A stretch of 64,000 nt of DNA from Lytechinus pictus (Eukaryota). Below are positions 15,918-50,483 of the stretch, in pieces. How positions within the stretch are numbered: position 1 is the first letter of the stretch; each line of letters begins with the position of its first letter. The notes under the pieces were generated by a model, which saw only the letters and a program-made list of their open reading frames with translations, ran no database searches and was not told where the DNA came from. Location: contig NC_087245.1 of NCBI RefSeq assembly GCF_037042905.1, positions 23,562,001 to 23,626,000 on the forward strand, written 5' to 3'. A program made the translations under genes and the position numbers.

Positions 15918-17069
15918 ATGGATAAAAATGTAATTATTTTTTCTGCAATAACTGTATCTAGGTGGCCCTTTTCTAAAAACAGGGTCCTTGTCGCCTCCAT
16001 TTCATTTTTATTCTTAACGTTATTTCTATTGGCCAATGATGCACATACTACCCTATATTCTAGAAGGCATGAGTTACCTCTTACAAACAGGAACGGGGAT
16101 GAGGAGAGGAACGAATCAAAACAAGTTACAGTCGCAAATGTCTCCTGTAATGAATTAATGATAAACCATGGATGTTATCAAATTGCCCAAGGCGAACATG
16201 AAAAGCCAATGTACAAGCCACTGGACTTGACGAAGTTAATACGACTCAATTGTTCTAGAAGGGCGCCCTCTGCAATCGTAATAGGAACCAAGAAAAGTGG
16301 CACGACGACGCTCAAGAACTTTCTAAGTTATCATCCAGATGTTGCGTTTGCGGAGAAAGAACTGAAGTTCATCAACAATAACGACCTCAGTGATTTAAAT
16401 AAGTACATAGCCGTAATGCCATACTCGACACCTCACCAAATAACCATGGAAAAAACTCCAGGATACTTCATTCGTCTTAAGGTGCCCAGTCGAATAAAAA
16501 GTGCCATTCCCAATGTGAAATTGATCGTCATTATCCGCAATCCCGTCAATCGCGCCATCTCAGATTTCGTGCACATGAGATACAGTGATGAAACGCGAGT
16601 TGGTGGTGCAAAATTGCTTAAAAGATCACCAAAGCCCGGGATGATTAGGTATGAAGTTTCTCAAACGTTTAGAGAATCCGTGCTTTTTGAGAATGGCTCT
16701 GTCAGGGAGAACAATGCACTCATCGACACTGGTATCTACGTTAAATATTTTCGCATGTGGCTTCAGTACTTTCCTTTGGACCAGTTTCTTATCCTTGACG
16801 GGGAGGAATTCGTCAAAGCTCCAACTCCCACCATGCACCGTGTGGAATCCTTCCTGGATATCAGACCATTTTTCACGGAGGACCACTTTTATTTTAATGA
16901 AGAGAAGAAGTTCCACTGTTTGAAAAAACCGCTTAATACTTGTATGTCGAAAAATAAAGGAAGGCCACACCCCTACGTGGATGAAGATGTCATCGAAAAG
17001 TTAAATGATTTTTATGCGCCCTTTAACAAGAAATTAGAAAAGTTGTTAAACAGAACGTTTTCATGGTAA
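15918..17069 (+). CDS. Heparan sulfate glucosamine 3-O-sulfotransferase (HS3ST1)-like Golgi sulfotransferase, paralog 1 (383 aa, single coding exon)
   Basis: Uninterrupted ORF from ATG 15918. N-terminal signal anchor VLVASISFLFLTLFLLA; 5'-PSB IGTKKSGTTTL; HPDV..EKELKF; MPYS...MEKTPGYF; 3'-PB IRNPVNRAISDF; C-terminal FYFNEEKKFHCL..CM..KGRPHP..FSW, colinear with 3-OST-1. Polypyrimidine/AG acceptor at 15541-15559 suggests an upstream non-coding exon; AATAAA at 17319. Confidence 0.9.
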   Translation: MDKNVIIFSAITVSRWPFSKNRVLVASISFLFLTLFLLANDAHTTLYSRRHELPLTNRNGDEERNESKQVTVANVSCNELMINHGCYQIAQGEHEKPMYKPLDLTKLIRLNCSRRAPSAIVIGTKKSGTTTLKNFLSYHPDVAFAEKELKFINNNDLSDLNKYIAVMPYSTPHQITMEKTPGYFIRLKVPSRIKSAIPNVKLIVIIRNPVNRAISDFVHMRYSDETRVGGAKLLKRSPKPGMIRYEVSQTFRESVLFENGSVRENNALIDTGIYVKYFRMWLQYFPLDQFLILDGEEFVKAPTPTMHRVESFLDIRPFFTEDHFYFNEEKKFHCLKKPLNTCMSKNKGRPHPYVDEDVIEKLNDFYAPFNKKLEKLLNRTFSW

Positions 17070-17815
17070 TGGCTTGTGATTTTGTCTGCAAGTTTTGTAA
17101 GAATGTTATTAACCTTTTTTATATCTTATTACTGTGCACTTTCAGATGGGATCCTTGAATACTTTCGATAGTTTGAGCCCCTTAGTTTTGAATGAATGCT
17201 TTAATTTGCATAATGCTAGCCCATCAGGACCGGAGTGATAATCAGAAAATTGCTCATAGATTTAAAACCTGTAACGTTAGTAAATGTATAGAATATTTCT
17301 TTTTTCAATTCACTAGTAAATAAAATGAAAAAAAAAGAATGTGGGAAAAAACAAATATATATATATCCATGAAAACCATTTCTCAAGGGATTTATGAAGA
17401 TACAATATTCTAATAGTTTTTTTTTATATACAATTACGAAATATTCTAGTTTCAAATGTCTTTTATTATAAAATAAAATAACATGACTAAATTAGCTACT
17501 CCAGATTCTGAGTATGACATTTCTACTTCAAATGCATCAGATGATCATACAGTCACCATTTTTTATTATTTTTAGATGAACAAATATAAAGATAGTCAAT
17601 TGACTCTATAAGACTATATTTTTTACCAGACTAGCTTTAGTGAGTGTTTGTATGTGTATAACGATAATGCAATGTACGTTATTTAAGAATACCATGTGAA
17701 GTGTGTGAAAATAATCTATGAGATATTTTGTGAATGTAGGATTTCAGATTTAAAAGAACATTTTCTGAAGGTTTTCTCATCAAGAACGAGAGTTTGATTT
17801 CACGTCTTACATCTT

Positions 17816-20002
17816 TTAAAGGGGAAGCTCACTCTGACAAAAAGTTTATTGTAAAAATAGAAGAAAAAAATTATTAGTAAAGGTTTAAGGAAAATCCATC
17901 AAAGATTAAAAAAGTAATTAGAAAAGTAATTAAAATTTTATTTCGTTTTTATTTGTGACATCATTATGCGAGCAGCTTCTTCGTTATAGTATATCGTGTG
18001 GTAAACAAATCAAATAATTTTCATTTTCTAAAAGAAAGAAAAAAAAACAAATCAAATAATTTTCATTTTCTGAAAGAAAGAATAAATAATAATCATGACC
18101 CATAAAAAAAATGAAATTTATGATTTTTATATAATTGAGCAGCTGCTCTACATGTATATGACGTCACAATTCGAAAACATAAAGTTGTAATAACCTCTTA
18201 ATCTTTGATAGATTTTCCTCAAACCTTCATCAATATTTTTTCTCATTTTGTCTGGATTTTTACCCAAAAAAAAAATTTCTTCAGGGTGAACTTCCCCCTT
18301 GATATCAATGGTAGTATTCATTTCTGATGTTAATGAAAGGAAGATTCATGCATAGCTTAGCGGACGGTCTGCCCCTCCTGTCATCATGGTGTCAGTTGGG
18401 CTATTCCAGGCTACAAACAAGTGACCCACAACAATAGCAGGGGCCTGGGAACGATTTTTGAAGGGGGTGCTGGTTTATGACAAGCAAATTAGGCGGAATT
18501 TGAAAGGGATGGTCCAGGCTGGAGATATCTCAATAAATACAGTAACATTCACAAAGCAAAATGCTGAAAATTTGATCAAAATTGGATAACAAATAAACGA
18601 AGTTATTGAATTTTTAAAGATTTGCATTATTCCGGTGAAACAGTTAATCATGGCATGTTGTCATGAATATTCATAAGGAGGGCTGATGATGTCATATCCC
18701 CACTTGTTCTTTTGTATTTTTTCATATGAAATTAGGATTAATAAAAAAAAAATTACCAAGAACTAATACAATTGGATTGACAACTGATTAAATGCATTAG
18801 TTATTTTATTGCCGCAACTTATGTCATCATAATGGACAAATGGAACAATTATGATTTCATGGAATAACATAACAAAAAGGAAAGTGGGGATGTGACATCA
18901 TCAGACCACCTAATGAATATTCATGACGACTGTTTTCACAAAATATTGATAAATTTTAAAATTCAATAACTTCGTTATTTGTTATCCGATTTTGGATGAA
19001 ATTTTCAGCATTTTGCTCTGTGAATTTTATTCAATTTACTTAGATATAAATATTTTCAGCCCGGACCATCCCTTTAACTGTCTTCAAACCTATTGTGGCC
19101 AAATTAATATCCAGACTTATAAAATTCTATTTCTGTGATTACGTGAATGATATTGTGTAATGCATTCTGATTACATTTAGCCAAGAAACTGTGAGAAAAC
19201 ACCTCATTGTTGTTGCATGGATGGCATAATATATCAGGTGGAAATGTGATTAATCATTGTGCATGCAATCACATAAGCTTTACGGTGTGCAAGGATTGTG
19301 ATGTACACTATTATCTCAGGGAATTTATATCATCCTTATCTGTACAGTTATGCAATGATTATGCGGATCTCGAACCATTGATGTGTTCGTGGGTTTGTCG
19401 CACCTTCTAGAATGTCGATATTCATCAAGATACTGGCCCGTTCGAATTTGATGAAGCTTTGTGACCTGAAGATCATGAATATTCAGATGTGATATTTATT
19501 TTATTCGAATTAAAGGAGAAGTTCGCTCTGACGATAAGTTGCTTTCACAAAAATCATAAAATATATTAGTGAAGCCTTAAGGTTTTATGAAAATTCATAA
19601 GAAACAAGGGAATTAGTAATTTGATTTGTGACGTCACATGCATGGAGCATCTCGTCATGTAATATAAATTCCATTATTCATTTTTTTTTAATGGAACAGG
19701 CAATGATGAATATATTCTTCTTATAGAAGAGGGTATGACGTGATGTGGCCCATGACAATATCCACCGCGCAAATAAAATCATTTTCATTTTTTTTCTTTG
19801 AAAAATGACTTTTGAAAATTCATATCACACGACATACTTATAGAGGGGCTGTTCGTTTGAGGCGTCATTTGATCAAAATTTTATCAAACTTCATAACTCC
19901 TTTATTCTTTGTCCGATTTTCACCAAACCTTCACCATTATCTTCCCTTCATTTTTCTACCTTTTTAAAACCATCTTGTCGTCAGGGTGAAGTTCGCCTTT
20001 AA
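17816..20002. mobile_element. Three adjacent Kolobok/T2-type MITEs (17816-18302, ~18500-19077, 19510-20002) downstream of paralog 1
   Basis: Paired ends: TTAAAGGGGAAGCTCAC/GTGAACTTCCCC; AAGGGATGGTCCAGGCTG/CAGCCCGGACCATCCCTTTAA; TTAAAGGAGAAGTTCGCTCTGACGA/TCGTCAGGGTGAAGTTCGCCTTTAA. Confidence 0.75.
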
Positions 20003-20539
20003 CACGTTACCATGGTTACCATTTCAGAGATATATGGAACTCCTTTTATATGTGTGCGTTGGAAAACAAGAAAAGTGTGTAATTTTTCGAATTGAACAAA
20101 ATATGATGACTTGGCTGAATGTTGATGATCCGGGTTATTCCAATTTCCATTGATAGATTTAGACTGTAAAAACGCTGTTTAAAATTTTAAGCACATTGTT
20201 GAAGCCCGTCACTCTAACAACTGCTGTTTAAACTTTTCAAACAACTGTTTTTAACAAGTTATTTAAAAAGTTTAAACAATTACAAAAAAGTTTAAACAAC
20301 TTGCTGTTAGAGTGACAGGCTTAAACAACATGCTATTTTTTTAACTGTGTAAAATATGTAGCTATGTCAGATTGTGCCTTTGTATAGCTCTAGAATTGAC
20401 GTTGGCAAGCACGTCTAGCGCATGATCAGGAACAAGTGCAAAATGGCCATATTATTGTTATTATGACAACAATGATGATCATCATCATAAATATTATCTT
20501 TTTTATTCTTACAATAATAGTAATAATTATAATGATGGT

Positions 20540-23401
20540 CATGGGCGGAAATCCCAGGGGGGACAGGGGGGACGTGTCCCCCCTACTCAAAATAGTAGGG
20601 GGGGACACAATATCAAATGTCCCCCCTACTATTTTTTGTCTTTTATGATGGTAAGAAATACATCATTCTAAATCGAAATAAAATATGTATTTTGGGACGA
20701 GTTGGGACGATGACCGTACTTTTGGGATGATAACCTTTTTTTTGCTTGTCAAGTTTTCCGCCCCTTGTCCCCATAGGCGGATCCAGGGGGCCGAGCCCCC
20801 CCCCCCCCCCACTATTGTCGGAGCAAAAAAAGAAGAAAAGGAAAGAAAGAAGGAAAAAGGAAAAAGGAAGGAAAAGAGAGGAGAAAAGGAAGAGGACGAC
20901 GAGTGCGCATAAAATAAGATGAGGGGAAGGGAAGAATCTTTCGTGCCACTATGTACAATTTTCGCTCGCGCTTCGCGCTCGCATTGCCTGTTAGGTGATT
21001 TACATATCTTACTCAATATGGAGCTTAAATATCAAGTTTGGAAGTCAATATACAAAACATATTTCACCTCGGAAATCGAACTTTCATTATTTTGTGTGAT
21101 TTACAATTTGATTTTTTAAAAGTGCTCTGTAAAAATGTCAGTTTTATGGTCTGAATAATTTTATCAACATTTGCTGCTTGCGCTGCGTGCTCGCAAATTT
21201 TGATTTATCAGGTACCTATTATTTTCGTGTATTCCATAAAGTTTTCAAAATATCCCTTTTCAGGTCTGATTGTCAAGACGTATCAGCTAGCGCTGCACGC
21301 TGGCATTTTGATTGGCGAGTTATGTATGTTTCAATATTGATTATACAACAAACTACTTAAAATCCCCTTTTCATGACAGTTTAACAAAAATTTTAGCTCG
21401 TGATTTGCGCTCGCATTAATGGTTAAAAATATATTAATTGATGCATCCTATTCATAATTACAAAAGTGAAATGCCCAGTTTTTATGCCATAATATCATCA
21501 GATTTCGCGCCCTCATTAGGCATTAATAAATATGATATTAATTTAATAATTCAATTGTCCCTTTTGTTTCATCTCGCGCTTAGCAAGAGGAATAGGAAGA
21601 TAGTCATCATTTTCATGACATGTCGTAAGGATGTCCCGGTCCTATGTCAAAACTCAAAGTAATAATAATGAAAATTTTAGCTCATTTTTTTAAGTGCGAT
21701 CCATATCCACCTTACAATTTTCCTACAAAGCGCTCGAAATATAAAGCTGTAATTGACTCTTTTCAGATCGGAATATCAAAGTTTCATGATTTTCATGATT
21801 AAAGATGTATTTAGAATGCCTAGATTCTAGGTCTAAATATGAAACACGCGCACGCATGTTTATTCAAATACTCAACTTAATCTCTTTTCAAATTACTATC
21901 AAGTTTCAGATCACAATATCAAAAATTTTCTGCTCGCCCTTTGTGCTCGCATTATTAATGTAGGAAACCCCCTATTACTCATCCTTTTCATGATTTACAA
22001 AACATTGATTTTGATTGATTTATTTTATTTAAACACGGTAAAAAGCCCTCAGCCTATGGCTGTTTACAAAACATGAACAGAGTGGTCAATTTTTAGGTCT
22101 AAATCTCGGTTTTTTTCTGCTCGCGCTTCGCGCTCGCATCAATTGTTGAATTATATAGCTATCCTGTTCACGATTACAAAAATTGATTAAATTTTCCATT
22201 CTTTCTTTAGAAATTTTCAGCTCGCGCTTCGCGCTCACATTTTTTGATTGTTGAAATATGTAACGCCTTCATGGCTAAGTGCAAGCAGTCCTTAACAAGT
22301 ACCTTTTCAACAGGTACCAGTTCAAAACGTATATAAAGATTTTCTGCTCGCGCTTTGCGCTCGCATTATTAATACTCATCCTTTTCATGATTTATAAAAC
22401 ATGAATAGAGTGTCTCGTTCAGTAAATATTATAGGACTAAATCTCGAAATTTTCCGCACGCGCTTCGCGCTCACATCAATTGTCTGCTTATATACCTATT
22501 CTGCTAGAGTTGCAAAAAGTGCTTAGAATTTTTAGGTGAAAATGTAAAAAAAAAATCAGCTCGCGCTTCGCGCTCGCATTATTTGATTGTTAAAGGTAAA
22601 TGCTAGTTTTGGTAACGATATCAAAATGAGTTCGTACAGAATCCAATGAAATGACCACCAAAGTGTCTGTTTGTATAAATAAAACGCATGTGCCAAAGGA
22701 TTCTGGAAGAAATTGTGTAATTGCTGAGAAATCAGCAAATAAGCACAGGATTCGGGTAGAGCGTCGGGCCCGACGCTCAAAGCAATAATTATACACAGTC
22801 CCACGTGCGCTTATCTGTGTTGGGGAAGTTCAGTCTGAACATTTTTCAGCGTAGATTTCAAGATTTTACAAAGTTCAGTTTATGTAACTGTACCAGATCT
22901 AGATCCTCGATGATATACTGACAATTAAGCCTGGTTTTACAGACTTTCTCATGAAATCAGTGTTTACTGCAACTACTGGAATTTCTCTTTAAATGCTAAC
23001 TGCACGCAGTCTTTAACAGGTATCTTTTCAATCAGTTCATTTCTGCTCGCGCTTTGCGTTCGTAGTAATTATTAAGTTGCATACACATTTTTTTTCAGGA
23101 TAACAAACATTGCCCAGAATGTTCAAATTTTAGGAAAAAATACATAAAATTTCCAAAAAATTAGCTTGCGCTTCGCGCTTGCATCATATAAATAAAAATT
23201 ATGATATTATATATGCATTTATAAGAATAAAGCTAAGAAGTGACTAATGAGGACTACCCCTTCAAAGAAACAAACACATATCATCTTCGAGCTGCCGATC
23301 GGGGAACTTGGCTGAAACAAATTTCCGCCCCCCCCCCTATTGGCGAAGGCTGGATCCGCCCCTGTGTCCCCCCTACCATTTGGGAGAGATTTCCGCCCCT
23401 G
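20540..23401. mobile_element. hAT-type MITE containing a nested 2.6-kb hAT-type element (20772-23364)
   Basis: Outer: TSD ATGATGGT (20532-20539, 23402-23409), ends CATGGGCGGAAATC / GATTTCCGCCCCTG. Inner: CATAGGCGGATCCAG / CTGGATCCGCCCCTG with TGTCCCC flanks and repeated GCTCGCGCTTCGCGCTCGCA motifs. Confidence 0.85.
22590..22992. mobile_element. Kolobok/T2-type MITE nested in the hAT element 20772-23364
   Basis: TTAA|AGGTAAATGCTAGT...ACTGGAATTTCTCT|TTAA (imperfect TIR); it interrupts the host element's ~110-bp periodicity. Confidence 0.6.
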
Positions 23402-25080: not shown

Positions 25081-25082
<2 letters not shown>

Positions 25083-25114
<32 letters not shown>

Positions 25115-25122
25115 TTCGGGAA

Positions 25123-25177
<55 letters not shown>

Positions 25178-28132: not shown

Positions 28133-28649
28133 GTCGCCAAGAGCTGTGTGTCCGATCGTCAGCGCGGGGGGGGGGGCTTAAATTGACCACCAGTATATCC
28201 AAGTCAGAAATAGCTCAGTTCAAATATGGTTAAATCAATCACATTGAGACAATTCACACGCGATCATGTCCACATTTATCAAAATTTATTGAATGATTTC
28301 TTACTCGAAGACATTATTGTTATCAATTCAATTTCATTTGCTATAATATGGTAATATAATTTATAATAATAATAATAAACTAAGTACGGCCTTCGATCGG
28401 AGGTTTGGTGAAACAATGGTCCCCTCAGTGACGCGAATGCGACCATTTTCCTTCGTGGCTGCTCTTCATGAAAACAAAATCGCATTTTGGCGTCACTTCG
28501 GGAACCATGCATATAGTTCGAACCACCTCCTCTTATGTCCATACATACGTTTTCATTTAAATATGCTGTGAAAGAAATTTGTATCCATATCTACGAGAGG
28601 ATATTGTCATCTGTTTCCATTCTCTTAGACTTTTGCTATGCTATCTAAT

Positions 28650-29951
28650 TTAGTAAGAATTCGTCCAACTAAGTTCTCGACCAAGAACGTTTGCAAGCTC
28701 TCTATTAAATGGTCTGAAATGATCTTGTAGCTTTATCTTTAAGTCATCACCGACTTCTTCATGTGGTCTCCCCTTTCCTGATGCCATACACATCTCAAAA
28801 GGATCTCGAAGGCAGATAAATCCTTTCGTCTCGTTGAAATAAAACTTTGTATCATCAAAGTAGCGATCGATCCCCAGAAATCCCTCGACCTGTTGGAGAC
28901 CTGTGGTGGGATCCTGCGCAAATTCTTCCCCGTCCAAGATAAGGATCTGTTCTCTAGGATAGATGTTGTACCACTGTGTTAGGTATTTGACATAGCGGCT
29001 CGTATCAAGGAGACGATTAGCAACCTTGAGGCTTCCATTTGTAAAAAGGACCGACTCACGAAAGGTAGGTTTGATTTCATATTGTGGAGCTGAAGAGTGT
29101 TCATTAACCTTTGTAGCGCCTGGATGCATCGCAATAATCGCTAGCTCATGCATATAGTTTGACACTGCACGGTTTATGGGTTCACGGAGAATTATGATGA
29201 ACTTGATATCAGGCATTTTCTTCCGTAGTCTTTCAGCAACTGCTATCCTGTTGTAATAGCCAGCCGTTTTCTCCATAGCAATCTGATCGGGGGTAGAATA
29301 CGGCATCACGTTCTTATATTGGTCGAATTCATTTAATTTATGATGATTTGCAAATTTCAATTCTTTATCTGGAAATGTAATCGATGGGTGGATTTCCAAA
29401 TATGCTTTGAGAGCCGTTGTGCCACTCTTCATTGCACCTGGTATGATAGCATCGGGTCTGCGTTTCTTGCATCCCCTTGCTCTTCGAATATCTGGACTCA
29501 ATAATTTCCTTTCAGGTGGATAAACATTGACGGCTTTCTTACAGTAGCATCCGCGATCAATGTGACCAACCTCACACACAGGCTCGTTCCCAGGTTGGAG
29601 GTACATGAGGCTACTCACGGTTATAGGCGATTTGGCAGTTCTGGTCGGCTTATGCGCTTCGAGAACTCGGATGGCATTGTGCTCACGTGTGCAAGCCAAC
29701 TGAGTAAAGTTGGTACCGTATTGAACCACGTGATGAACTTCCTGCTGATGTCCATCCGACGCCAGGTACGTTGTGAAAAAACATAGCATCAGGAATGCGG
29801 TAATAACAGCGACGGTTACTTTTGATCGTCCGGTTAGTGAAACCTTCGCCATTGCCGTCATGTTGTGAAAAAAATCAAACTGCAGAAATGGAATGCCTTC
29901 TTGCTGGCGTCTCACTTCGATCAGACCTGTTTTATGAATCCATTTTGGCAT
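28650..29951 (-). CDS. HS3ST1-like Golgi sulfotransferase, paralog 2 (433 aa from first ATG; alternative start MTAMAK at 29861)
   Basis: Intact ORF. Signal anchor VTVAVITAFLMLCFFTTYL; PGAMKSGTTAL; KELKFAN; MEKTAGYY; ILREPINRAVSNY; FYFNETKGFICL..CM..KGRPH..LSW. Minus-strand splice acceptor (tttctttatctgaacAG) at 29956-29957, 4 nt before the ATG. Start codon uncertain. Confidence 0.9.
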   Translation of the reverse strand: MPKWIHKTGLIEVRRQQEGIPFLQFDFFHNMTAMAKVSLTGRSKVTVAVITAFLMLCFFTTYLASDGHQQEVHHVVQYGTNFTQLACTREHNAIRVLEAHKPTRTAKSPITVSSLMYLQPGNEPVCEVGHIDRGCYCKKAVNVYPPERKLLSPDIRRARGCKKRRPDAIIPGAMKSGTTALKAYLEIHPSITFPDKELKFANHHKLNEFDQYKNVMPYSTPDQIAMEKTAGYYNRIAVAERLRKKMPDIKFIIILREPINRAVSNYMHELAIIAMHPGATKVNEHSSAPQYEIKPTFRESVLFTNGSLKVANRLLDTSRYVKYLTQWYNIYPREQILILDGEEFAQDPTTGLQQVEGFLGIDRYFDDTKFYFNETKGFICLRDPFEMCMASGKGRPHEEVGDDLKIKLQDHFRPFNRELANVLGRELSWTNSY

Positions 29952-31531
29952 AAGGCTGTTCAGATAAAGAAATTAGAAATTATTAGGCGTTAACTTAAAA
30001 AGATATATTTGGTGCTCTATCATCAATTTCAATTTGAAAGTATAAAATGGATCTCTTTTTTTAAAGCAGTAATGATAGTAATGTCAACTGATATTCAGAT
30101 CTTATAGACATAGACGAATGGTATTTATGTTCAAAAGGATTATAAAATCGGTGACGTTGTCACAACATTTGGATTGGCTGTCTGAGATCTCGACTTTCCA
30201 ATATGTATATCTATGTACTCCGCGGCCCACCTTCACGACTAGCTGCGCATGCACAATATTTTTTTAATGATATCTGGATTGAATTGTTATTACTTTGACA
30301 GAACGTTCATGACCAGTCACCCCCCCCCTATCCATTAGGCCCTACCATGACACCATTGCCACAACATGATATTGCTTTATTATACCATAATGCTAATGAA
30401 AGTTCTGAAGCGAATGGAGCTCATAATTGCATTTATACGCATGACAACGACTACACATTAACAAGTTGGATCAAATTCGTTTTTTATGCGCTTCATCCAT
30501 GATTATTTAGTTTAATGGTTTATCTCAGCATGAAACATATCGGAATTACTATACGGGGCATATCCTGGCAATGCAATTAATAACGGTTAATGGGAAATCC
30601 AAGGCCACTGTGTGCAGAAACTGACGTTCGAAGGGTCTTCCAGGGCTCATAATTCCAATTTGCTCAAACTTCCATTATTATATAGTTTTATAAAGTTTTT
30701 ATGATTTTTCTCTTTAATATACAATTCAACTGGTTCAAGGGTTCATTCTCCTGTGAAACCTGCACTGCTTATCAAACACTATAAGATGCTTTTCTTGTAT
30801 AAATCAACATACTTACCGGTACATATTTTCAAGTTTGGAATTCAAAATAAGTACAAAACACAAAAAATGACAATGAAAAAGGGCAAAGCATATAACAATA
30901 TCAATAAACAGTGATTCGAAAAGAAGGGGGAAAAGGGAATCTGTTGTTCTTTTAGATACCCATCTTAATCATTGGTACCAAAAATGCTTAGAATATCAAG
31001 CTTTCAGATCAGAATATAAAGAAATTTCAGCTCGCTCTCGGCACTCGCACTATCTGTGTATTGAGACATGTATCCTCCTCATGAGTCACTACAAACAGGT
31101 ACCATTTTCCTATTTTCAGGTCAGTATACTAAAAAAATTCAGCTCGAGCTTCGTGCTCGCATTAGTTTCTTTCTCATGAGTCATATATATATATGTATAT
31201 ATATATGTGGGTGAGTGTGTTTGGGTGAGTTTGTTTGCTTTGTGTGGTCGAGCGCCTTTGGAACGTTGATTCGTGATTTTGCCCCCCAATCTGAAAAATG
31301 GATCGACGCCCCTGCTTACAACGGATAGAAAAAGAGGGAGTTACAAGAGCTGATTCGCATCGCTATCGAGCACAACAAATAACGCAGTCACAGACCAGGA
31401 ATCAGACAATTATATTACTCCCTGAAAGGGCCTAAAGCTCAGCTCACACTATGCGATTCGTTGCGATCCGAATTTCAAAGAAATTGTTATAACATTATTT
31501 TGATACGAGCATTCCAACCAATAAAATCTAA

Positions 31532-33017
31532 TGCTAAGTTCACACCAACAGCGCTTTGATGGCGCTTTAAAGCGGCGTGCAAAGCGGCGGCAAATAGAAA
31601 AACTCTGTTGAAAACAGAGTTTTCCACAAAGTTTTCCAGAAAGTTTTTTCTATTTTTTTTTATTTATTATATTTCATTTTTTAATTTTATAATGTTTTAT
31701 ATTTTATTATCTTTGTTTTATTTTCTCTGTTACAATAATGGTTATTTATCTCACATATAAAACTGATTTTCTGACTTTTTTATTAATTAGTAAGAAAATC
31801 AATTTGTAATAATTTGTAATAATCAATTTAACAAAAAATTGCGTATGTTAAAGATCTTTTATCGCACATATCTAAATTTCAAATTCTGCAACTTGATTCC
31901 TTTAGATTTTCACTCCTGATTTACAATTATAGTAGTATTATCTGATTTTTCATGGGTAAGAAATCAACAACAATAACATCAATAATAATAATAACATCTT
32001 CACAAGTACACATAATAAAAAAATCATTTTAAACTTATATTAAAAATAAACAGAGTGTGCATATAGGAGAATGTTCTTATTTCCAGACACAAAAGTCTTT
32101 ATCTTCATCATCTGCTTCTGACGATATCTGAGCCACTCCTTTCTTAACTCAATCAGGAAGTACCACCCCAGCCATTCTTTGTTGCCAGTCAACAGCACCC
32201 ACTGGAGAGACGAAGTATTCTCTGAGATGATCTTTCTGATGTCTGGCATCCACAGTGGCGAGGTTCCTCCTTGCAGGTGGTTGCGGAACATCTTCCCAGT
32301 GAGGTCCATCTCTCCAGGCCCCTGGTGCGAAGTTGTGCTCTTCATCTTCGTGGTCCACCGCATTGGCTGCCAGCGCCACCCTCTTCCTCAGCAGGTTGTG
32401 GAGCACCACAGCAGTCTCCACCAAATCTCTGACGTTATCTACCTTCTGTTCCAGTGTTCCCAACAGGCACCGGAACCTGTACGTGGCCATGATGCCAAGG
32501 GCATTCTCCACCACTCTCCTCTCCCTTGAGATCTTGTAGTTGCAGATCCTCTGTTCATCTGTCATCCCTATTCTACTGTATGGCTTCATCATATACATGT
32601 ACCTCTTCAGGGCAAAAGCATCGTCACCCAGGATGAAGTAGGGAATATCAGGCTGATTTTCTCCAGGGATAGGGCATGGTGGGGGCAGCCCTATGGACCC
32701 ATCTTCTAGGCATTCGAAGAGCTCAGAGTCTGTGAATATCTGGGAGTCAGACATGTGTCCTTTACCTCCCAGCTCAATCCAGATGAACTTGTACTCTGCA
32801 TCTACCAATGCCAGCAGTGGTATAGAGAAGAACCCCTTGTAGTTGTGGTAGAGCCTGCCTGTGTTTGCTGGCTTCTTAATGGCTATGTGCTTTCCATCCA
32901 AGGCACCAATTGCATGGGGGGGGGGATTCCATCTCTGTTCAAACTGCTGGGCAAGGGTGCTCCATGCTTCACGGGTGGTAGGTATGTTGAAGACCTCATC
33001 TTTATACGCCTCTACAA
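31532..33017 (-). mobile_element. Harbinger element remnant (one terminus plus nuclease gene)
   Basis: TAA|TGCTAAGTTCACACC at 31529-31546 resembles Harbinger termini (TAA target, GCTxxGTTCACAC); the nuclease gene points toward it. The other end is missing. Confidence 0.55.
32149..33017 (-). pseudogene. PIF/Harbinger transposase (HARBI1-type DDE nuclease), 5'-truncated
   Basis: Open frame of ~290 codons: [62 protein letters not shown]. The N-terminus is cut off at 33017/33018 by a hAT MITE terminus. Confidence 0.9.
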
Positions 33018-33406
33018 CAGCGGCGTAACAGGGGCCGGTGGCTAGGGGGGGGGGGACAAGAGCAAAAATTTTCCCGGTCATATCATGGTATGAACAGGCG
33101 TAATGGTGTGAGGAGACGATTTTGAGAGGGCCAGATATTGCGTATCGGGCAGGATTTATCTTATAAAAAAATTGCGAGCGAGCGAAGCGAGCGAGCAATT
33201 TTTTTTTACAATTTTAATACAAAATCAAATTTTGTGATAGATTTTGACATGATATCCAGAGAATAATATATTTCATTCTTCTCTCTTTCCATTCCTTTAT
33301 TTTGTGGTCTGTACCCCACTGTGAACAGGATTCTTTGCGGCAGTAGCGTGAAGAGTACAAAAAACGAGGGGAGGGGCACAGAATGGCGCATGTGCTAAAA
33401 AGCTGC

Positions 33407-33992
33407 TTAAAGGACAAGTCCACCCCAACAAAAAGTTTATTTGAATAAAAATAGAAAAATCGAACGAGGTGACTGAAAATTTCATCAAAATCGGACGTAA
33501 AATAAGAAAATTATGACATTTTAAAATTTTCCTAAACATCCCTGGTGGGTAAGCAAATGAGGAGACTGATGACGTCATCCACTCACTATTTCTTTTGTAC
33601 TTTATTGTATGAAATAGGGAATATTCTATTTTTCTCCTCATTGTCAAGTGAAACAACGATTAATTACTCCTGAACATATGGAATGAGCATTGTTTACTAT
33701 TATAAGATTCAGCCAAGGTCGTCCTTATTGTCAAATCTATAAAAAAATGAAATATTGTAAAATTCAAACAATAAAAAACAAAAGAAATAGTGAGAGAGGG
33801 GCATCATCGAAAGACTCATTTGCATGTCACTGAGTTGTGCATATCACTGTTTTGTGAAAAATAAGCAAAATTAAAAATGCCATAACTTTCTTATTTTACA
33901 AGCGATTTTGATGAAATTTTCAGCGTTTTGCTAATTTGATTTTTCTCTATTTATTCAAGTCAACATTTTTCTGGGATGGACTTGACATTTAA
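33407..33992. mobile_element. Kolobok/T2-type MITE (TTAA target, AGG termini) inserted in element A
   Basis: TTAA|AGGACAAGTCCACCCC...GATGGACTTGACAT|TTAA. Absent at the matching position of the inner copy (~40645), which shows the empty site. Confidence 0.85.
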
Positions 33993-36694: not shown

Positions 36695-39600
36695 ATGATT
36701 ACGAACATTTCCAACGATTCCAATGATGTTATTAATGATATTGGTACTAATAATGATGATGAACTTAAAATTGATTTAGATCCAAATGATGGGGCTTCGA
36801 GTGTCATATCCTCAAACTACTACACTCAGGCTTCAGCCAAAAACATTTTCAAAGGTTTACCTTCTTCCTGCTTGTCTATTTTCCATCTAAATATCAGAAG
36901 CCTTAACAAGAATTTTGAAACATTTCGTTCTATTTTTAGATAACTCAGGTTTTCCCCAAAATACAGTAATAGGTTTAGCTGAGACATGGCTGTAAGATGA
37001 ATATATCAATATGAATGCACTCCCAGGTTATGATATACTTACAAATAATCGTGTTGATAAAATTGGTGGTGGTGTTGCAATTTTTGTGCCGAGTCAATTT
37101 GAGTATGTTATTATTGAAGACATGAATTTAATGAATGAAACTGCAGAAACTTTATTTATTGAAATTAGTGATCGTGATAACAGAAAAACTGTATTGGGAG
37201 TTGTTTATAAGCCTCCTCGCAGCAATAGTGCTGATTTTCTAGACACTTTAAATAATTTACTACATTATCATTCTGTTCAAAACAAAAGATGTATCATAAT
37301 GGGAGACTTTAACTATGACCTGTTAGCGAGTGATACTAATATTTTTGCAAATGACTTTTTAGAGACATTCCTTTCTGCCTCCTTTTTGCCACTCATTTCT
37401 AGACCCACTAGAATCACTAATACTTACGCAACTCTGATTGACAATTTTTTCTCCAATATACGTTCAGAATTTAAAGCTGGTATAATTATCTCAGACATGT
37501 CTGATCATTTCCCAATTTTCATGTACTGTTCTAATCAATATCAGCCAAACAAACTTCCCGATTATGTATCTAAGAGGCGTGTGTATAGTGATATAAATAT
37601 ATCTCGTTTGAAACAGAGTTTAGAAGAAGAATCTTGGGATGATGTATTTAGTACAGAATGTGTTGACGAGTCCTACGAAACATTTATTGATATCTTCATG
37701 AGTCATGTTAATGAAAATATTCCTTTTGCAAAGCCCAAGTCCAAAAATTATAAAAGATCACCCAGACTGCCTTGGATAACGAATTCAATTCTTCGTTCGA
37801 TAAATAGAAAAAAAAAATCGATTATACTATACATATATATCAATATTAACTGAGAATACTCGGAGCCAATATACTAATTATAAGAATATACTAACAGGGG
37901 TCATCCGTACTGCTAAAAAGGCATATTACCATGATCAATTTAATCAATGCAAGAATGATCTTTAAAAAAATGGAAATTGATCAATTCTACCATCAATAAT
38001 GGACCAAAGTTTTCAATGATAACTAAGCTTATGCATAATGATTCTATTATTGAAGATAAAGTTCAGATGGCAAATATTTTCAACAATTACTTTTCACAAG
38101 TTGGATTTAAGCTCTCTAGAAGTATACCAACAAACTCCCATTCATTTCATCAATATCTGGGGGATAGAAATCAAAGTTCTATGTTTTTCTCTCCTACGAA
38201 CGCACAGGAGATAATCAAAATTATATCTAGCCTAAAATCAAATAAAAGTGCAGGATTTGATAACATTGATAACAACCTTTTACAGAAAACTATGAATTAT
38301 ATAATTGACCCTCTTATTTATATATTCAATTTGTCATTATCATCGGGAAATATTCCAAAATCAATGAAAATTTCTAAGATAAAACCAGTCTTCAAAAAAG
38401 GTGATATTTCTTTATCAAGTAACTACAGACCGATTTCATTGCTTACAAACTTATCTAAAATTCTTGAAAAATTGGTTCACATACGAACCATATGTTTTTT
38501 TTTTAAAGCACAACATCCTATCCGATACTCAATTTGGTTTCCGGGAAAAGAGTAGCACTTCCCACGCAATACGTTCTTTAGTTCAAACAGTTGCCAAAGC
38601 TTATGACAAGTCTTCGAATACGATTGCTTTGTTTTTAGATTTTTCAAAAGCATTCGATACAGTTGATCATAACATTCTCCTTTATAAACTTTCTCATTAT
38701 GGAATAAGAGGGGAACCACTAAAGTGGTTCAAGAATTATCTAACCGGGCGTTCACAGTTCGTTTCACTTGATTGTAATATTTCTGAACGTAAACCTGTCC
38801 TTTGTGGAGTTCCACAGGGCAGCATTCTAGGCCCACTTTTGTTCATTACTTATATAAATGATATTGATATGTCATCTAGATTGCTTCAATTTATACTTTT
38901 CGCTGATGACTCTAATATATTTCTGTCGCACCCCGACCCAGAGCAATTGACGCAAATATTCAATGACGAACTCAAAACTGTTTCTAATTGGATAACAGCT
39001 AACAAACTCTCTCTTAACCTAGAAAAAACTAGCTACATGCTATTTAGCAACAAGATTACGACTGTACCAAAAGATGTAATTTTAAATGATACTGTCATTC
39101 TAAGAGTGCGATCTACTAAATTTTTGGGACTGATCATTGACGAAAAACTTTCTTGGAAAGCACATATTGATAATATTTGTAAAATCATTGCTCGCAACAT
39201 TGGTGTCATTAGAAAAATAAGTTACTTCTTACCCCATTATATTTTGTTATCATTGTATTCAACGTTAATTTTACCTTACTTGAATTACGGAGTTGTTGCG
39301 TGGGGTAATGCAGCGAATTCTCAAATTAATAGACTTTTTATTTTACAAAAAAGAGTGATTCGTATTATTAGTCATGCAGAATTCAGGGCACATACAAATA
39401 TTCTGTTTTTGAGAAATAAAGTCTCGAAGGTTAAAGATTTATATTCTTTTCAACTCGGACAGTTAATGTACAAGTTTATCAATAAACAATTACCGTTACC
39501 TTTTAATAATATGTTTGTAAAAAATAATACAATTCATAAGCACTTCACTCGCCAGGCGAGTTCCTTTCATTTACCTCTGAATAGAACATCGTTTGCACAG

Positions 39601-39720
39601 AAGACATTTGTTTTTACTGGTCCAAAATTATGGAATTCTTTTTCAAAGGATATTATACAATGTAATTCAATACAAAATTTCAAAGGAAAACTTAAAAAAT
39701 ATCTTCTGAATTCATATTAG
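36695..39720 (+). pseudogene. LINE ORF2 (APE endonuclease + reverse transcriptase) with stops and frameshifts
   Basis: EN motifs HLNIRSL, ETWL, IIMGDFN, SDHFPIF. RT motifs YRPISLL, QFGFR, FLDFSKAFDTVDH, GVPQGSILGPLLF, FADD, KFLG. Split over ORFs 36695-36943, 37011-37853, 37977-38555 and 38401-39720. Confidence 0.92.
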
Positions 39721-42465: not shown

Positions 42466-42630
42466 ACATGTAGCTTCACCAATTATTGTGCGTCGACACA
42501 AACCGAGTCTGTGCCCCAGAACATATTCATATCCTTATTAATACGATAATGAATGCAACCACTGTCTGTGTCAATTGACAGAGAAGCATTTTACTTATGA
42601 GTGCACTGCGGAAAAAACACAGGCCAGCTC

Positions 42631-45149: not shown

Positions 45150-45314
45150 CAGGGGCCGCGGAAGCGGGGGGGGGGGGGAGGGGCTGGAGGGCTTCAGCCC
45201 CCCCCCCCCACTTTTTTCCAAAACCGTGTACAAAAACGTGAAAATTACCATAGATTGTAATTTTTTGCATGGTCAGCCCCCCCCCCCTCTTTGAAAATCG
45301 TTCCGCGGTCCCTG
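45150..45314. mobile_element. Short hAT-type MITE (family of 8218-8371)
   Basis: CAGGGGCCGCGGAA...TTCCGCGGTCCCTG; the internal GTGTACAAAAACGTGAAA matches 8305-8330 in reverse. Confidence 0.75.
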
Positions 45315-47038
45315 TATATTAAAACCGGGACGTAATTTAATCACACGTATGAACAACGACTAGGCCTACTTACCTATTGTAATTGTTTTCATGTCAATAT
45401 ATCTTCTCTGAAGGAAAGAAGAGATTCAAACTCTATGCAATTACATAAGTATTGTCCATCAGCTGACAAGATAAAGCTCCTGATTAATTGTTTAACTGCT
45501 CATCAGCGTTTCGAATGTCATGCATGCAGGCATTTGCCCCATCTGAAAAATCTGCACCATATAGGCCTATGTGCCCAGCCCTCGGAAGAAATCCAGTTTT
45601 CTCTTGAAATATGTGCTAGTCGATTAAATTCATTAGTAATATCACCCAATGAGTATAGGCCTAGGCATTCTTTCACAAGTTGCAAAATTCAACTATGATA
45701 CAATGATGCGCGATGTACAGGTTCGTGGTAAAGGCTATCGATTAGTTTGTTTAGTATTGTGTAATTTACACCATAAATTACGCATTGCACAATTTATGTC
45801 ATGTGAACATTATGAAAAGAAGTGAGTTTTAGTTGACATCATGGAACATGATTTGAGATCTTTTCATGAGATGAAATTCATTAACATGTCAAGAATGTTT
45901 TTTTCATACCGAAATTGCGGTCACGCTTGGATGATTTATAATAGAGCGCCGCAATAACAACAAAAGAAAGTTCGTTTACCATACGTAAGTCAACGATATA
46001 AAGTATGACGATTTGTCTGTAAATTTGCTTACCTAAATAATAGGAGAATAGAATGATGCAGTTCTTGTGTTTTTCATAGAATATACGAATACTGAAACGA
46101 CTCGAAGTCGTGCTAGATGTCTTCTTTTGCTTTTCTGGTGCAGTATTGTGCCTCATCACACTCATGTTCATAATTATACTCTTGAAACTCAATGTCTCAC
46201 CCAAACTTGCTCTTATAAATGTGCAATGTAGATCCGTGGTGCAATAAGAAGAGTCTCAGCGTTTACGCACCCATGGCTGTGTGACCGTGACCTCTCCCAT
46301 CTGACTTTCGACCTATATCAGCTCTGACAGTGCAGTGTCGGAAGCCGGTTATTCCATAATCAAGTTCCCGGATGACTTTTTTACTGGTCTCCTTGAAAAC
46401 ATGGACACTGCGAGAACTAGTAGGACCCATTTCCAAAATAACGATGTCAATGATTTTTTATCTGTCTAATAGAAGTTTTTTTTTTACATTGATGCAACAT
46501 TCACAATTTCGTCTTGGATATTTGCAAAACCAAGGAAATCATGTTTTTCGGCGTGCATTATGAAAATCCATAGTTTCTTTTGCATGAACCTCATTGTAAA
46601 TAATCATCTTTTGATCAAGTCCAGTAGTGCAATGAGGCAAAAATTTTGAGACATGGCGCATAGAGCAAATTTCTAAAGAGCTGTGACATGGCAAAGCGAG
46701 CAAGCAAAAAATGTCTCTTTAATACAAAAAAATTGATATAATATTCAAAAAATGATCCCCTTTCCTTTCCTTTTAATTCTTTATCTCAATTTTCGTTTCT
46801 TTGTCGTGAAAATTTTAGGAGGTCCCAGCCCACTCCCCATCTGTACGTCAGTGATCAATAACTTTAATAGGACAGTCATTGACATTAAATTAACTGACTT
46901 TTGGAAACAACTCAGAAATAGCATATCGTAATTCTATCCATGATTTCGTATTTACTATCGCATTCTAATCCTCTTTACTAGTATACAGCGCATGCCACTT
47001 AGTTTTTTTTAAATTCTAATAAGGATGATAGCATAGTA

Positions 47039-47603
47039 ACAAGTCCACCCCAATAAAAAGTTGATCTGAATAAAAAGAGAAAAATCCAACAAGCATAACA
47101 CTGAAAATTTCATCAAAATCGGCGGATGTAAAATAAGAAAGTTATGACAGTTTTAAGTTTCGCTTAATTTCACGAAACAGTTATATGCACAACCCGGTTG
47201 GTATGCAAATACAATTTCTTTTGTATTTTATCATATGAAATATTCTCCTCATTGTCCTGTGAAACAAAGTTTTATTTCTCCCTGAACATGTGGAATTACC
47301 ATTGTTTAACATTTTATGTTTTAGTCAAGTTGGTCCTTATTGTCAAATCTGTAAAAACTGAAATATCGTTTAATTCAAACAATATAAAAAACACAAAAGA
47401 AATAGTGAGGTGCATCATCGATTCTCTCATTTGCATGTAACTTAATTGTGCATATAACTATTTTTTTGAAAAATAAGCGAAACTTTAAAATGTCATAACT
47501 TTCTTATTTTACATCAAATTTTGAGGAAATTTTTAGCATTTTACTGTCTGATTTATCTCTATTGATTAAAATCAACATTTTTTTAGATGGACTTGACCTT
47601 TAA
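47039..47603. mobile_element. Kolobok/T2-type MITE (left tip eroded)
   Basis: ACAAGTCCACCCC...ATGGACTTGACCT|TTAA; internal sequence matches 1381-1991. Confidence 0.8.
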
Positions 47604-48059
47604 CATAGTATTGGTACGATATTTAGAACTTTACACAGTAAGATGTTCCATGTCTCGATTTTAGATCAAATTGTATTTACGTGTTATCCAAACTCGGGTC
47701 GCAGGCCAATCGTAAGAGGAGGCTTGTTGTTCGACGTAAAGTGGCTTCCTGGGGCGAAATTCAGGCGCTTCAGATGCGGGCGGGGGGGGGGGGGGGCTGT
47801 TAGAAGGTGTGATGGAGACGGAGTGAGGTAGGGCTTGTAACGATTGTCTGTGTTCGCGGAGCGGGGGTGGCCGCACCCTTTCGAGAAGACCGGGTGAGCT
47901 TTTCTCGATAGGGTGGGTTGAGGGGGGGGGGGAGTAAAATTAACACACCTTTTCGAGACAACCGGGGGAGCTATTCACGACAGGCTGTGCTGAGTTTTTG
48001 TAAGGGTAGGGAGGCCTAACAGTGAGGTGAGGATGGGTGCGTGTGTGTATATTTGTGTG

Positions 48060-48310
48060 CATAGGCGGCTGAAGCGGGGGGGGGGGGGAGGGGGACGGGG
48101 GTCCTGTCCCCTTAAATTTTGAGGACGGACTACCCCCTTTTCTGCTTGTCAATTTTGTTTCCTGCGTCCCCCTCTAAATTCAGGTGGACCCCCCCCCCCC
48201 TAAAATTATGGTTGATAACCTTTTTTTTTGCTTGTCCAATTTTTTTACCTGTATCCATCTCAAAATTTCAGGTGGACCCCCGCTAATATTTTTGGCTTTT
48301 GCCACCAATG
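48060..48310. mobile_element. hAT-type MITE
   Basis: Ends CATAGGCGGC / GCCACCAATG; flanks TTTGTGTG / TATGTGTG (7/8 match). Confidence 0.6.
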
Positions 48311-49256
48311 TATGTGTGTGTGTAACTGATGAAGGAAAGAAGACAAAACCACATATTTTTGTGCATTTTCATTTTTGACTTATTCATTCTCAATAGTCTC
48401 GGCGGTCCACATTTCTCAAGAAAAAAAATCACAAAGCAGTAACTTGTTCATAAATTACATATGGCGTCGCCTTCCCGCACAAAGGTCGTTAGCGCGCACT
48501 GCTCGTCGCCTTCCCGCGAAAGGGGCGGTATCGTGCAGTGAACACTATGCGCTACGGCTTTTGTGCGGGAAGGCGACGGGCAGTGCAGTGCGCACTAGTT
48601 AACGGCCTTTGTGCGGGAAGGTGAAAATAATATATCTACTCCCAGACTATATGTCATCATAACCAACCCTTTTGATTTTCATCTAATTTAGGAGCAATGA
48701 CCATGTATTATATTCATTAATGTATAGTAATAAAATACTCCAGACCAAGTTCAATTATGTATATAAATAACTTAATAACTTCTACAATAAATAAAAAACG
48801 AATGAAATGCTTCCAACTGCATGAGAAATGTCAAATTACCGACATTTTTCGTGTACATTATTAACAAAATATTTTTAAAAGACCATTCCAAGAACCAATG
48901 ACAAGATGCCGTCAGATCTTAACTGTACAACCTGTAATTTGAATACTTTCCCAATGTCCCATAAATAAGACATTTAATTTCGCCTTTAGTATTTTCGAAA
49001 ATTGGTGAGAATAATGGAACATCAGTTTGTTCTATACAAGTTTCGGAGATTAAAGAAAATGTTATTTGTTGTTTATCCATGGGTCCAGGACGAAACTACT
49101 GGTTTGATTATCAAATTATCGTTAAAGTCTTCTTGGTTGTTCATTGTCATAGATGCCATTTGACAATACATTTTTAGGTTCTTGAAAGCGTTCTGCATGC
49201 ATGGAGGTGCGAAAATTCCCTATTGTAGAACACATAGGCCACTATAATCCATAATT

Positions 49257-50483
49257 TCAATAAGCATTCGTCCAACTAAGCTCTCGTCCAAGGACCTTTA
49301 CAAGCTGTCTATTAAATGGTCTAAAGTGATCTTGTAGCTTTTTCATCAGGTCATCATTGACGAACTCATGTTGCCTCCCCTTGTTACTTCGCATACACAT
49401 CTCAAAAGGATCTCGAAGGCAGATAAATCCTTTCGTCTCGTTGAAATAAAACTTTGTATCATCAAAGTAGCGATCGATCCCCAGAAATCCCTCGACCTGT
49501 TGGAGAACTGGGGTGGGATCCATAATAAACTCTTCCCCGTCCAAGATCAGGATGTGTTCTCTCGGAAAGATGTTGTACCACTGTGTTAGGTATTTGACAT
49601 AGCGGCTCGAATCAAGGAGACGATTAGCAACCTTGAGACCTCCATTCGGAAAAAGGACCGACTCGCGAAAGGTGGATTTAATCTCATACTGTGGAGCACT
49701 AGTATTTTCCTGGATATGTATCTCATGATATTCATTACGAGCTACCATATGCATATAGTTTGACACTGCACGGTTTATGGGTTCACGGAGAATGATGATG
49801 AACTTGGTATCAGGCATTGCCTTCCGTAGTCTTTTTGCGATTGGTATTCTGATGAAATACCCAGCAGTTTTTTCTATAGCAATCTGATCGGGGGTGGAAT
49901 ATGGCATGACATCCGCGTATGCATCGTACTCATATGTAAGATGATGATTGGCGAAATGCAGTTCTGTTAGTGGGAATGAAATAGCTGGATGGAGTTCCAG
50001 ATATGCCTTGAGAGCCGTGGTGCCACTCTTCATGGAGCCTGGAATGATGACATCGGGTCTGCGTTTCTTGCATCCTCTCATCCTTAGAATTTCTTCGTTC
50101 AAAAGTTTGATTTCTGGTGGATATGTATTCAACCCCTTCCGGCAGTAGCATCCACGATCAATATCACCCTCCTCGCACACATCACCAAGCTCTTCCCTGA
50201 GCTGCATGTACATGGGGCTTTTTGGAGATTTGATCCCTTTGATCGTGCCTGGGGCAGAAGCAGAAGCTTTGAAGGCATACTGCGGCTGATGAACCCGGGT
50301 AGTGCTATTGGCATTATGCTCAGAAGGGCACTTTTGGAACCTTGCACAGGATTTAACCATCGACAGGAACCGCAATTCCACTGTGAAGATTCCTAGCGTC
50401 AAGAAACCACTGATGGCCACCACCAGCAGGATTGTAATGGCTGTAGTTACCGATGGTCTTCTGACGTGCATTATCATGGTCAT
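49257..50483 (-). CDS. HS3ST1-like Golgi sulfotransferase, paralog 3 (408 aa), close paralog of paralog 2
   Basis: Intact ORF. Signal anchor AITILLVVAISGFLTLGIFTV; PGSMKSGTTAL; TELHFAN; IEKTAGYF; ILREPINRAVSNY; FYFNETKGFICLRDPFEMCM..KGRQH. Candidate minus-strand acceptor AG at 50549-50550. Confidence 0.9.
   Translation of the reverse strand: MTMIMHVRRPSVTTAITILLVVAISGFLTLGIFTVELRFLSMVKSCARFQKCPSEHNANSTTRVHQPQYAFKASASAPGTIKGIKSPKSPMYMQLREELGDVCEEGDIDRGCYCRKGLNTYPPEIKLLNEEILRMRGCKKRRPDVIIPGSMKSGTTALKAYLELHPAISFPLTELHFANHHLTYEYDAYADVMPYSTPDQIAIEKTAGYFIRIPIAKRLRKAMPDTKFIIILREPINRAVSNYMHMVARNEYHEIHIQENTSAPQYEIKSTFRESVLFPNGGLKVANRLLDSSRYVKYLTQWYNIFPREHILILDGEEFIMDPTPVLQQVEGFLGIDRYFDDTKFYFNETKGFICLRDPFEMCMRSNKGRQHEFVNDDLMKKLQDHFRPFNRQLVKVLGRELSWTNAY

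Follow-up and report, generated by a model that had tools for sequence, protein, structure and literature searches.

A 64,000-nucleotide stretch of the genome of the sea urchin Lytechinus pictus (contig NC_087245.1, positions 23,562,001 to 23,626,000; hereafter the window) carries three genes, g1, g2, and g3, whose products resemble the heparan sulfate 3-O-sulfotransferases (3-OSTs, encoded by HS3ST genes) but have a changed acceptor site. The residues that grip the uronic acids of heparan are absent, so that a different glycan is likely sulfated. We conclude that g1-g3 are probably active O-sulfotransferases that use 3'-phosphoadenosine 5'-phosphosulfate (PAPS) and act not on heparan sulfate but on a uronate-poor glycan, with glycoprotein glycans as the likely substrates. 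In databases, these proteins and their relatives carry automatic HS3ST names; the heparan activity that such names imply is contradicted by the acceptor residues as predicted from the alignments.

Each of the three genes is an uninterrupted open reading frame (ORF), as the original prediction had claimed (Table 1). Each protein has a single hydrophobic segment near its N terminus and a stem, together with N-glycosylation sequons and two paired Cys residues toward the C terminus; this architecture matches that of a type II Golgi membrane enzyme. The only Pfam domain matches over their 383 to 408 residues are Sulfotransfer_1/3, with Sulfotransfer_1 above the cut-off in all three. The best matches in the PDB are 3-OST-1, -3, and -5 (E value, 9e-54 for g1 and 4e-41 for g2). 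An AlphaFold model of g1 residues 75-383 built from 128 sequences (predicted local distance difference test [pLDDT], 94; predicted template modeling score [pTM], 0.91), which replaced a discarded 8-sequence model of pLDDT 42, superimposes on the isolated domains of these enzymes with a Z score of 33 and a root mean square deviation (rmsd) of 1.5 to 1.8 Å (1.5 Å over ~254 residues). A Cys-containing extension at g1 residues 77-112 is modeled with a pLDDT of 93 to 94 over most of its length and lies outside the part of the model (37-309) spanned by most structural matches. An insertion at the cleft, residues 220-246, has a low pLDDT of 63 to 72.

Residue changes were read from an alignment to mouse 3-OST-1, for which the 3-OST-3 equivalents are R67=K161, K68=K162, R72=R166, E90=E184, H92=H186, D95=D189, K123=K215, Q163=Q255, K274=K368, and R276=R370. 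All three proteins retain the catalytic Lys68 and Glu90, K123 in the EKT motif, the 5'-phosphosulfate-binding (5'-PSB) motif, the 3'-phosphate-binding (3'-PB) motif with its Arg and Ser, and K274 and R276 in the C-terminal KGR. In all three, R72 is replaced by Thr, D95 by Asn and, through the conversion of SDYTQ to SDFVH or SNYMH, Q163 by His. H92 is Lys in g1 and g2 and is retained in g3, while position 67 is Met in g2 and g3 and Lys in g1, the latter being the usual residue of 3-OST-3 (K161). Because 13 of 120 HS3ST5-like proteins that are canonical in other respects have Asn at the D95 site as well, this change is not diagnostic alone. The cleft insertion comes after the Q255 helix, at the location expected for K259 of 3-OST-3.

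According to a mutational and structural study of 3-OST-3, activity on heparan sulfate drops below 1% upon substitution of any of ten residues (K161A, K162A, R166E, E184Q, H186F, D189N, K215A, Q255A, K368A, or R370E; PMC8341778). Five of these, K162, E184, K215, K368, and R370, are retained in g1-g3; the changed positions, varying by paralogue, are K161, R166, H186, D189, and Q255. In the crystal structure, the acceptor sugar is flanked by uronates whose carboxylates are bound by R166 and Q255. Table S1 of that study lists R166 as a contact of the carboxylate of uronate d and K161, Q255, and K259 as contacts of that of uronate f, and K215, K368, and R370 contact uronate d as well (PMC8341778). 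The positions of the changes in g1-g3 thus indicate that both uronate clamps are hit and the chemistry is spared. The alignments to solved 3-OSTs confirmed every kept and substituted residue listed in the original prediction, and its claim that the altered residues are essential for heparan activity agrees with both the null mutants and the carboxylate ligands of 3-OST-3.

That these genes are not ordinary HS3ST orthologues, as had also been proposed, is supported by phylogeny. From a profile search of 1.84 billion representatives, the best 150 of 1319 matches at an E value of 1e-30 or better were taken; a FastTree of 152 domains, from which 19 fragments, duplicates, or multidomain rows had been left out, placed g1-g3 inside a clade of 64 rows, a grouping that is post hoc since the clade was delimited from this tree itself. 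One member, P0075, fell outside the clade in IQ-TREE and was removed from it for the final tree. There, 30 of the 64 rows lie together on one side of a branch supported by an ultrafast bootstrap (UFBoot) of 98 and an SH-aLRT of 95. Forcing g1-g3 together with the canonical HS3STs of Antedon, Anneissia, and Acanthaster was rejected by the approximately unbiased (AU) test (p-AU, 1e-5), and no orthology to HS3ST1/5 or HS3ST2/3/4/6 was found. Hence, g1-g3 are a predicted separate 3-OST-like subfamily and not HS3ST1/5 orthologues. Rooting with four prokaryote-type sequences left the base of the tree unsettled, with the clade nested in or sister to all HS3STs; we infer from the fold and the narrow range of named species that it derives from an HS3ST duplicate.

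The two clamp residues set the clade apart from a comparison set of 120 canonical rows, those listed among 1775 matches to a hemichordate HS3ST5-like protein. The R166 equivalent is kept in 0 of 64 clade rows versus 118 of 120 canonical ones and the Q255 equivalent in 3 of 64 versus 118 of 120. The corresponding numbers for K162 and for E184 are 60 of 64 versus 120 of 120, and R370 is kept in 51 of 64 clade rows. Of 263 rows, 172 have both R72 and Q163, 82 have neither, and only 9 are discordant. No covariation of H92 or D95 with R72 was found; H92K and D95N are patchy in the clade, as brittle-star and crinoid members have His and Asp or Glu at these sites, and are putatively later changes within it. 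A stem Cys (g1 residue 112), present in 56 of 64 clade rows and in 0 of 120 canonical ones, marks the clade, and the segment after the Q163 helix that contains the insertion has a median length of 31 residues in the clade versus 15 in canonical rows.

All species-named clade rows, 20 of the 64, belong to Ambulacraria, i.e., echinoderms or hemichordates (Lytechinus [two species], Strongylocentrotus, Diadema, Holothuria, Apostichopus, Amphiura, Anneissia, Glandiceps, and Saccoglossus), and the nearest cluster in the ESM Atlas is mostly echinoderm. Canonical enzymes with all ten residues occur in Antedon, Anneissia, Acanthaster, and hemichordates. Orthologues of the genes at this locus are present in Lytechinus variegatus and Strongylocentrotus purpuratus: those of g1 are the protein records P0019 and P0022, and in S. 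purpuratus the g1 orthologue and g2-like copies have adjacent accessions and are assigned to a contig of one and the same length. A fourth L. pictus paralogue is known as a protein record (P0002/P0012); no fourth sulfotransferase copy was found in the window by tblastn.

Some further observations concern the wider family. S. purpuratus has at least three separate clade groups on three contigs (the P0032 cluster, the P0036 cluster, and P0003/P0016/P0017), and one group with five or more near-identical copies indicates that expansion is ongoing. In one sub-branch of the clade (P0074, P0087, and P0100), neither an alignable catalytic Glu motif nor the EKT Lys is present, and these proteins may be inactive. 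Outside the clade, R72 and/or Q163 is lost in the hemichordate HS3ST5-like proteins P0275 and P0336, in P0163 of the clam Mya, and in P0098, which suggests repeated re-aiming of 3-OSTs in marine invertebrates.

The claimed purifying selection is borne out by a dN/dS of 0.34 over the domain for g2 and g3, and of 0.22 in the N-lobe. Their synonymous divergence is patchy, with a dS of 0.77 in the N-lobe versus 0.07 to 0.19 in two core tracts. The pair shares an unbroken stretch of 115 identical nucleotides, and among codons for the same residue, 40 in succession show no difference (permutation P value, 0.002); I308 and G327 are common to g2 and g3 and occur in none of the five other paralogues or orthologues aligned. 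The cleft insertion, with 5 of 18 residues identical between g2 and g3, varies more among the paralogues than any other part of the domain, and between g2 and its L. variegatus counterpart it retains 12 of 20 residues, while the rest of the domain is 92 to 97% identical. With 11 synonymous sites behind it, the dN/dS of 1.15 for the g2/g3 insertion is no evidence of positive selection. The most likely explanation of the pattern is that gene conversion acts on the core and leaves the cleft insertion to diverge.

Expression is supported by data for L. variegatus from a cell-type expression study (PMC13200730). Chromosome NC_054740.1 of that species has three HS3ST1-like genes, LOC121422423 (+), LOC121422416 (+), and LOC121422431 (-), with levels of 0.04 to 4, 39 to 69 (in late embryos), and 6 to 14 fragments per kilobase per million (FPKM), respectively (PMC13200730). 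Two same-strand genes and one convergent gene are the layout of the window reversed. LOC121422431 has several transcript variants, and the g1 orthologue P0019 has three accessions. The number of its mRNA, XM_041617488, lies 144,066 above that of one of these, XP_041473422; we take this difference to be NCBI's usual XM/XP offset of that period, and neighboring LOC/XM pairs agree. Together, the gene layout, isoform number, and accession spacing strongly indicate that LOC121422431 is the g1 orthologue. The assignment of the other two is conflicting, as gene order would equate LOC121422416 with g2 and accession spacing would equate LOC121422423 with the g2-like P0010.

LOC121422431 was detected in 29.6% of skeletogenic cells versus 2.2% of other cells (log2 fold change, 3.93; adjusted P value, 9e-147), and it appears in Table 2 of the same study among genes lowered under both inhibitors (VEGF/BMP inhibition), in a list that also holds msp130rel1, msp130rel3, a mucin gene, and a sulfate transporter of the prestin-like type (PMC13200730). 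The only cell-type data found point to embryonic skeletogenic cells for g1, a pattern that does not fit a role in egg jelly. No match could be made between g1-g3 and the sulfotransferases of a tooth-matrix proteome (PMC2614417). In L. pictus, contigs of run X1 cover g2 at 28385-29295 and 29481-30028 with ~99% identity, one of them crossing the predicted splice acceptor before the coding exon unspliced, and the alignment of a contig of run X2 ends at 29957 with 173 unaligned letters; X1 and X2 are only guessed to be RNA. Run X21, from the same study as X1, leaves most of g2 uncovered and carries no weight either way.

How might such enzymes work? Sulfate would be passed from PAPS to a sugar hydroxyl by in-line transfer in the Golgi, following the 3-OST mechanism, with Glu as the base and Lys stabilizing the leaving group, roles that are established for 3-OST and presumed for g1-g3. 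The remaining K123, K274, and R276 could hold one anionic group on a neighboring sugar, for example, a sulfate or the carboxylate of a sialic acid. In evolutionary terms, an old echinoderm/hemichordate expansion of 3-OST-like genes may have diversified in acceptors, with canonical HS3STs kept for heparan, and g2 and g3 would be a younger tandem pair whose cores have been partly homogenized by gene conversion as their cleft loops diverge. For g1, the acceptors that we tentatively favor are sulfated N- or O-glycans of msp130-type surface glycoproteins of skeletogenic cells. Sulfated N-glycans have been postulated on skeleton glycoproteins, their structures being undefined (PMC6994554), and echinoderm N-glycans carry sulfated Gal, GlcNAc, Man, and Fuc (PMC7616688).

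Several points weigh against this interpretation. K215, K368, and R370, which contact uronate d, are kept; a His at the Q255 site could bind a carboxylate and hence a uronate-containing acceptor; and a change that abolishes activity in a human enzyme may not do so at a coadapted invertebrate site. D189N occurs in canonical-looking proteins (13/120), and catalysis might be weakened by H92K together with D95N. Only four independent contrasts underlie the joint loss of R72 and Q163 (3.7 of the 4 agree in direction; P = 0.125), and 44 of the 64 clade rows carry no species name. Where skeletogenesis is concerned, the link between g1 and LOC121422431 is drawn from gene layout, isoform number, and accession spacing, the inhibitor effects are nominal (adjusted P value, 1.0 for K02288 and 0.155 for axitinib; PMC13200730), a second single-cell study does not list LOC764585 in its supplements, and the abstract on the 1223 epitope of msp130 names fucose and sialic acid and not sulfate (PMC2115769).

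The most serious alternative, albeit an unlikely one in our judgment, is that g1-g3 still sulfate a glycosaminoglycan, be it heparan with unusual subsites or a polymer of the chondroitin/dermatan type, with His and basic residues substituting for Arg72 and Gln163. Fold and sequence are indeed nearest to the 3-OSTs, and the gate His is retained along with K215, K368, and R370. 3-O-sulfated uronic acids occur in echinoderm chondroitin/dermatan, and no canonical sea urchin HS3ST was seen among the 120 listed of the 1775 matches. Echinoderm glycosaminoglycans are, moreover, described as oversulfated in a 2019 review (PMC6994554). However, both uronate clamps are changed clade-wide, and each of these changes abolishes the heparan activity of 3-OST-3 (PMC8341778). 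The persistence of canonical HS3STs in crinoids, a starfish, and hemichordates also means that no replacement would be needed.

Egg-jelly or body-wall sulfated fucans and galactans, with fast-changing cleft loops setting species-specific sulfation, are a more remote option, which we regard as improbable overall, with g2, g3, and other clade members as the possible candidates. Fucans have no uronate, consistent with lost clamps, and no other part of the domain changes as fast between species as the cleft insertion. L. variegatus contains a regular 2- and 4-O-sulfated fucan, and fucan/galactan biosynthesis was "virtually unknown" according to a 2012 review (PMC3366676). On the other hand, LOC121422431, the probable counterpart of g1, is expressed in embryonic skeletogenic cells, and the high late-embryo level of LOC121422416 falls in a stage far from oogenesis (PMC13200730). 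Including crinoids, brittle stars, sea cucumbers, and hemichordates, the clade is also much older and wider than the egg jelly of one urchin. Most improbable of all is that the three are weak or dead, acting as Golgi proteins that bind glycans or 3'-phosphoadenosine 5'-phosphate (PAP) or persisting as slowly decaying duplicates. Five positions that 3-OST-3 needs for activity differ, two of them the His and Asp beside the catalytic Glu, and Glu or KGR is lost in some clade members. Yet in g1-g3 the catalytic Lys and Glu are intact, as is each PAPS motif, the same P-loop occurs in prokaryote-type homologues, the frames are unbroken in three urchin species, the g2/g3 dN/dS indicates purifying selection, and expression is specific to a cell type (PMC13200730). 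We therefore retain PAPS-dependent sulfation of a uronate-poor glycan as the preferred interpretation.

This subfamily is apparently an undescribed variant of a known enzyme class, with the fold and chemistry of 3-OST; no functional or phylogenetic description turned up in a literature search that did not reach most subscription papers or bioRxiv supplements. The 2019 review holds that glycosaminoglycan enzymes were probably the only glycan-modifying sulfotransferases of invertebrates characterized up to then (PMC6994554). The clade thus offers a defined, misannotated candidate set with a structural reason to expect a nonheparan acceptor. One of its members is open to direct study in a standard embryo model and provides a testable link to the glycans of biomineralization. 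If true, a heparan enzyme scaffold was re-aimed via two cleft residues and one loop, and such a scaffold would be of use for the chemoenzymatic synthesis of marine sulfated glycans. A wider proposal, which we find rather doubtful, is that dozens of 3-OST-derived enzymes across echinoderms and hemichordates that do not use heparan are the missing sulfotransferases for echinoderm-specific sulfated glycans. The variable cleft insertion would choose the acceptor, g1 serving a calcium-binding glycan of skeleton cells and sister lineages the sulfation of fucans, galactans, or gangliosides.

The claim that the genes lie in heavy transposon traffic proved real: Harbinger-type DDE_Tnp_4, long interspersed nuclear element (LINE) endonuclease and reverse transcriptase pieces, Tc1 transposase, and many repeats are found around and between the genes (Table 1). 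g2 and g3 point in the same direction, and g1 faces both. An in-frame upstream ATG at 29951 would give a 433-residue form of g2, which is database record P0009; g2 differs from a named L. pictus protein by one residue and is ~90% identical to its L. variegatus counterpart, which bears out the echinoderm host that the original prediction had considered. A further 73 ORFs of at least 75 codons in the window yielded only a second Tc1 transposase piece and one match below the cut-off, and none belonged to an N-deacetylase family.

Table 1. Features of the window discussed in the text
Feature	Position	Strand	Description
g1	15918-17069	+	Uninterrupted ORF, 383 aa; GTKKSGTTTL, ELKFIN, SDFVH, KGR; transmembrane segment at ~residues 23-41
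g1 Cys-containing extension	16146-16253	+	C...GCY...C, residues 77-112; precedes catalytic domain, predicted to be folded
g1 cleft insertion	16575-16655	+	Residues 220-246; after Q163-equivalent helix, predicted at reducing-end side of acceptor cleft
g2	28650-29861	-	Uninterrupted ORF, 403 aa; GAMKSGTTAL, ELKFAN, SNYMH, KGR
Predicted splice-acceptor AG	29956-29957	-	Before g2 coding exon; pyrimidine tract, then ACAG
Harbinger-type DDE_Tnp_4 transposase ORF	32149-33213	-	Between g2 and g3
Palindromic element like a miniature inverted-repeat transposable element (MITE)	33407-33992		~600 bp; related copies at 1381-1991 and 47039-47607
LINE endonuclease/reverse transcriptase frame	36996-39720	+	Split into three ORFs; between g2 and g3
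g3	49257-50483	-	Uninterrupted ORF, 408 aa; GSMKSGTTAL, ELHFAN, SNYMH, KGR
Tc1-type element	52058-54095		Intact 342-aa transposase ORF, ATG at 52799; TA runs at flanks

The Tc1-type element has unusually long inverted repeats of 699 bp with three mismatches. The final 430 bases of the ORF fall within the right repeat and are therefore also present, in antisense, in the left one; the element could be a source of hairpin RNA, a recent rearrangement, or an assembly artifact. The summed contig depth of the MITE-like palindrome reaches tens of thousands in all four sequencing runs compared. A very long (GTA)n microsatellite at 7023-8579 (~400 plus 70 units) accounts for the low-complexity ORFs there. 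Upstream of g1, a 17-codon ORF at 15872-15925 (+) overlaps the start codon out of frame and might tune translation of g1; in L. variegatus, the ATG of this upstream ORF shares the reading frame of the g1 orthologue and thereby lengthens the protein by 15 residues (P0019).

Among known systems, HS3ST1/5 and HS3ST3 (PDB 1VKJ, 3UAN, 3BD9, 1T8T, and 6XL8) are alike in fold to g1-g3 and 36 to 40% identical, and they have the type II layout, the catalytic Lys and Glu, the PAPS motifs, the C-terminal Cys pair, and KGR in common with them. Unlike these enzymes, g1-g3 form a separate clade, have R72, Q163, D95, and, by paralogue, H92 and R67 replaced, and carry the Cys-containing N-terminal extension and the cleft-side insertion. 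The N-sulfotransferase (NST) domain of the N-deacetylase/N-sulfotransferase NDST1 (PDB 1NST and 8CCY) belongs to the same superfamily. Its fit to the g1 model is looser (Z score, 28 versus 33; rmsd, 2.6 Å), its E values are 1e-23 to 1e-25, and its bit score with g1 is about half that of the 3-OSTs (89 versus 186), which rules out a stand-alone NDST domain; g1-g3 have no N-deacetylase domain. The special resemblance to NDST that the original prediction had seen in TTAL, E..F.N, and S.Y.H, motifs of the NDST family, was not supported. The same states occur in prokaryote-type homologues and are thus generic to the superfamily and not diagnostic of NDST, and a 42-residue P-loop stretch alone shows no preference for NST over 3-OST. 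In a set of 63 distinct prokaryote-type homologues from metagenome contigs, biased by retrieval with a KSG-containing pattern, the R72 site is Thr or Ser in 60 of 60 with a readable P-loop, and the Q163 site is His in 36 of 61. The metagenome scan otherwise gave one contig with a clade member (L001) and three other animal-like matches, the rest being distant and prokaryote-type. Bacterial NST/3-OST-like sulfotransferases (PDB 3RNL; loci L005-L080) thus share the KxGT[T/S] P-loop with g1-g3, but they are only 24 to 31% identical to them and, in the alignments examined, lack the C-terminal FYFN...C...C..KGR region that g1-g3 have in common with the 3-OSTs.

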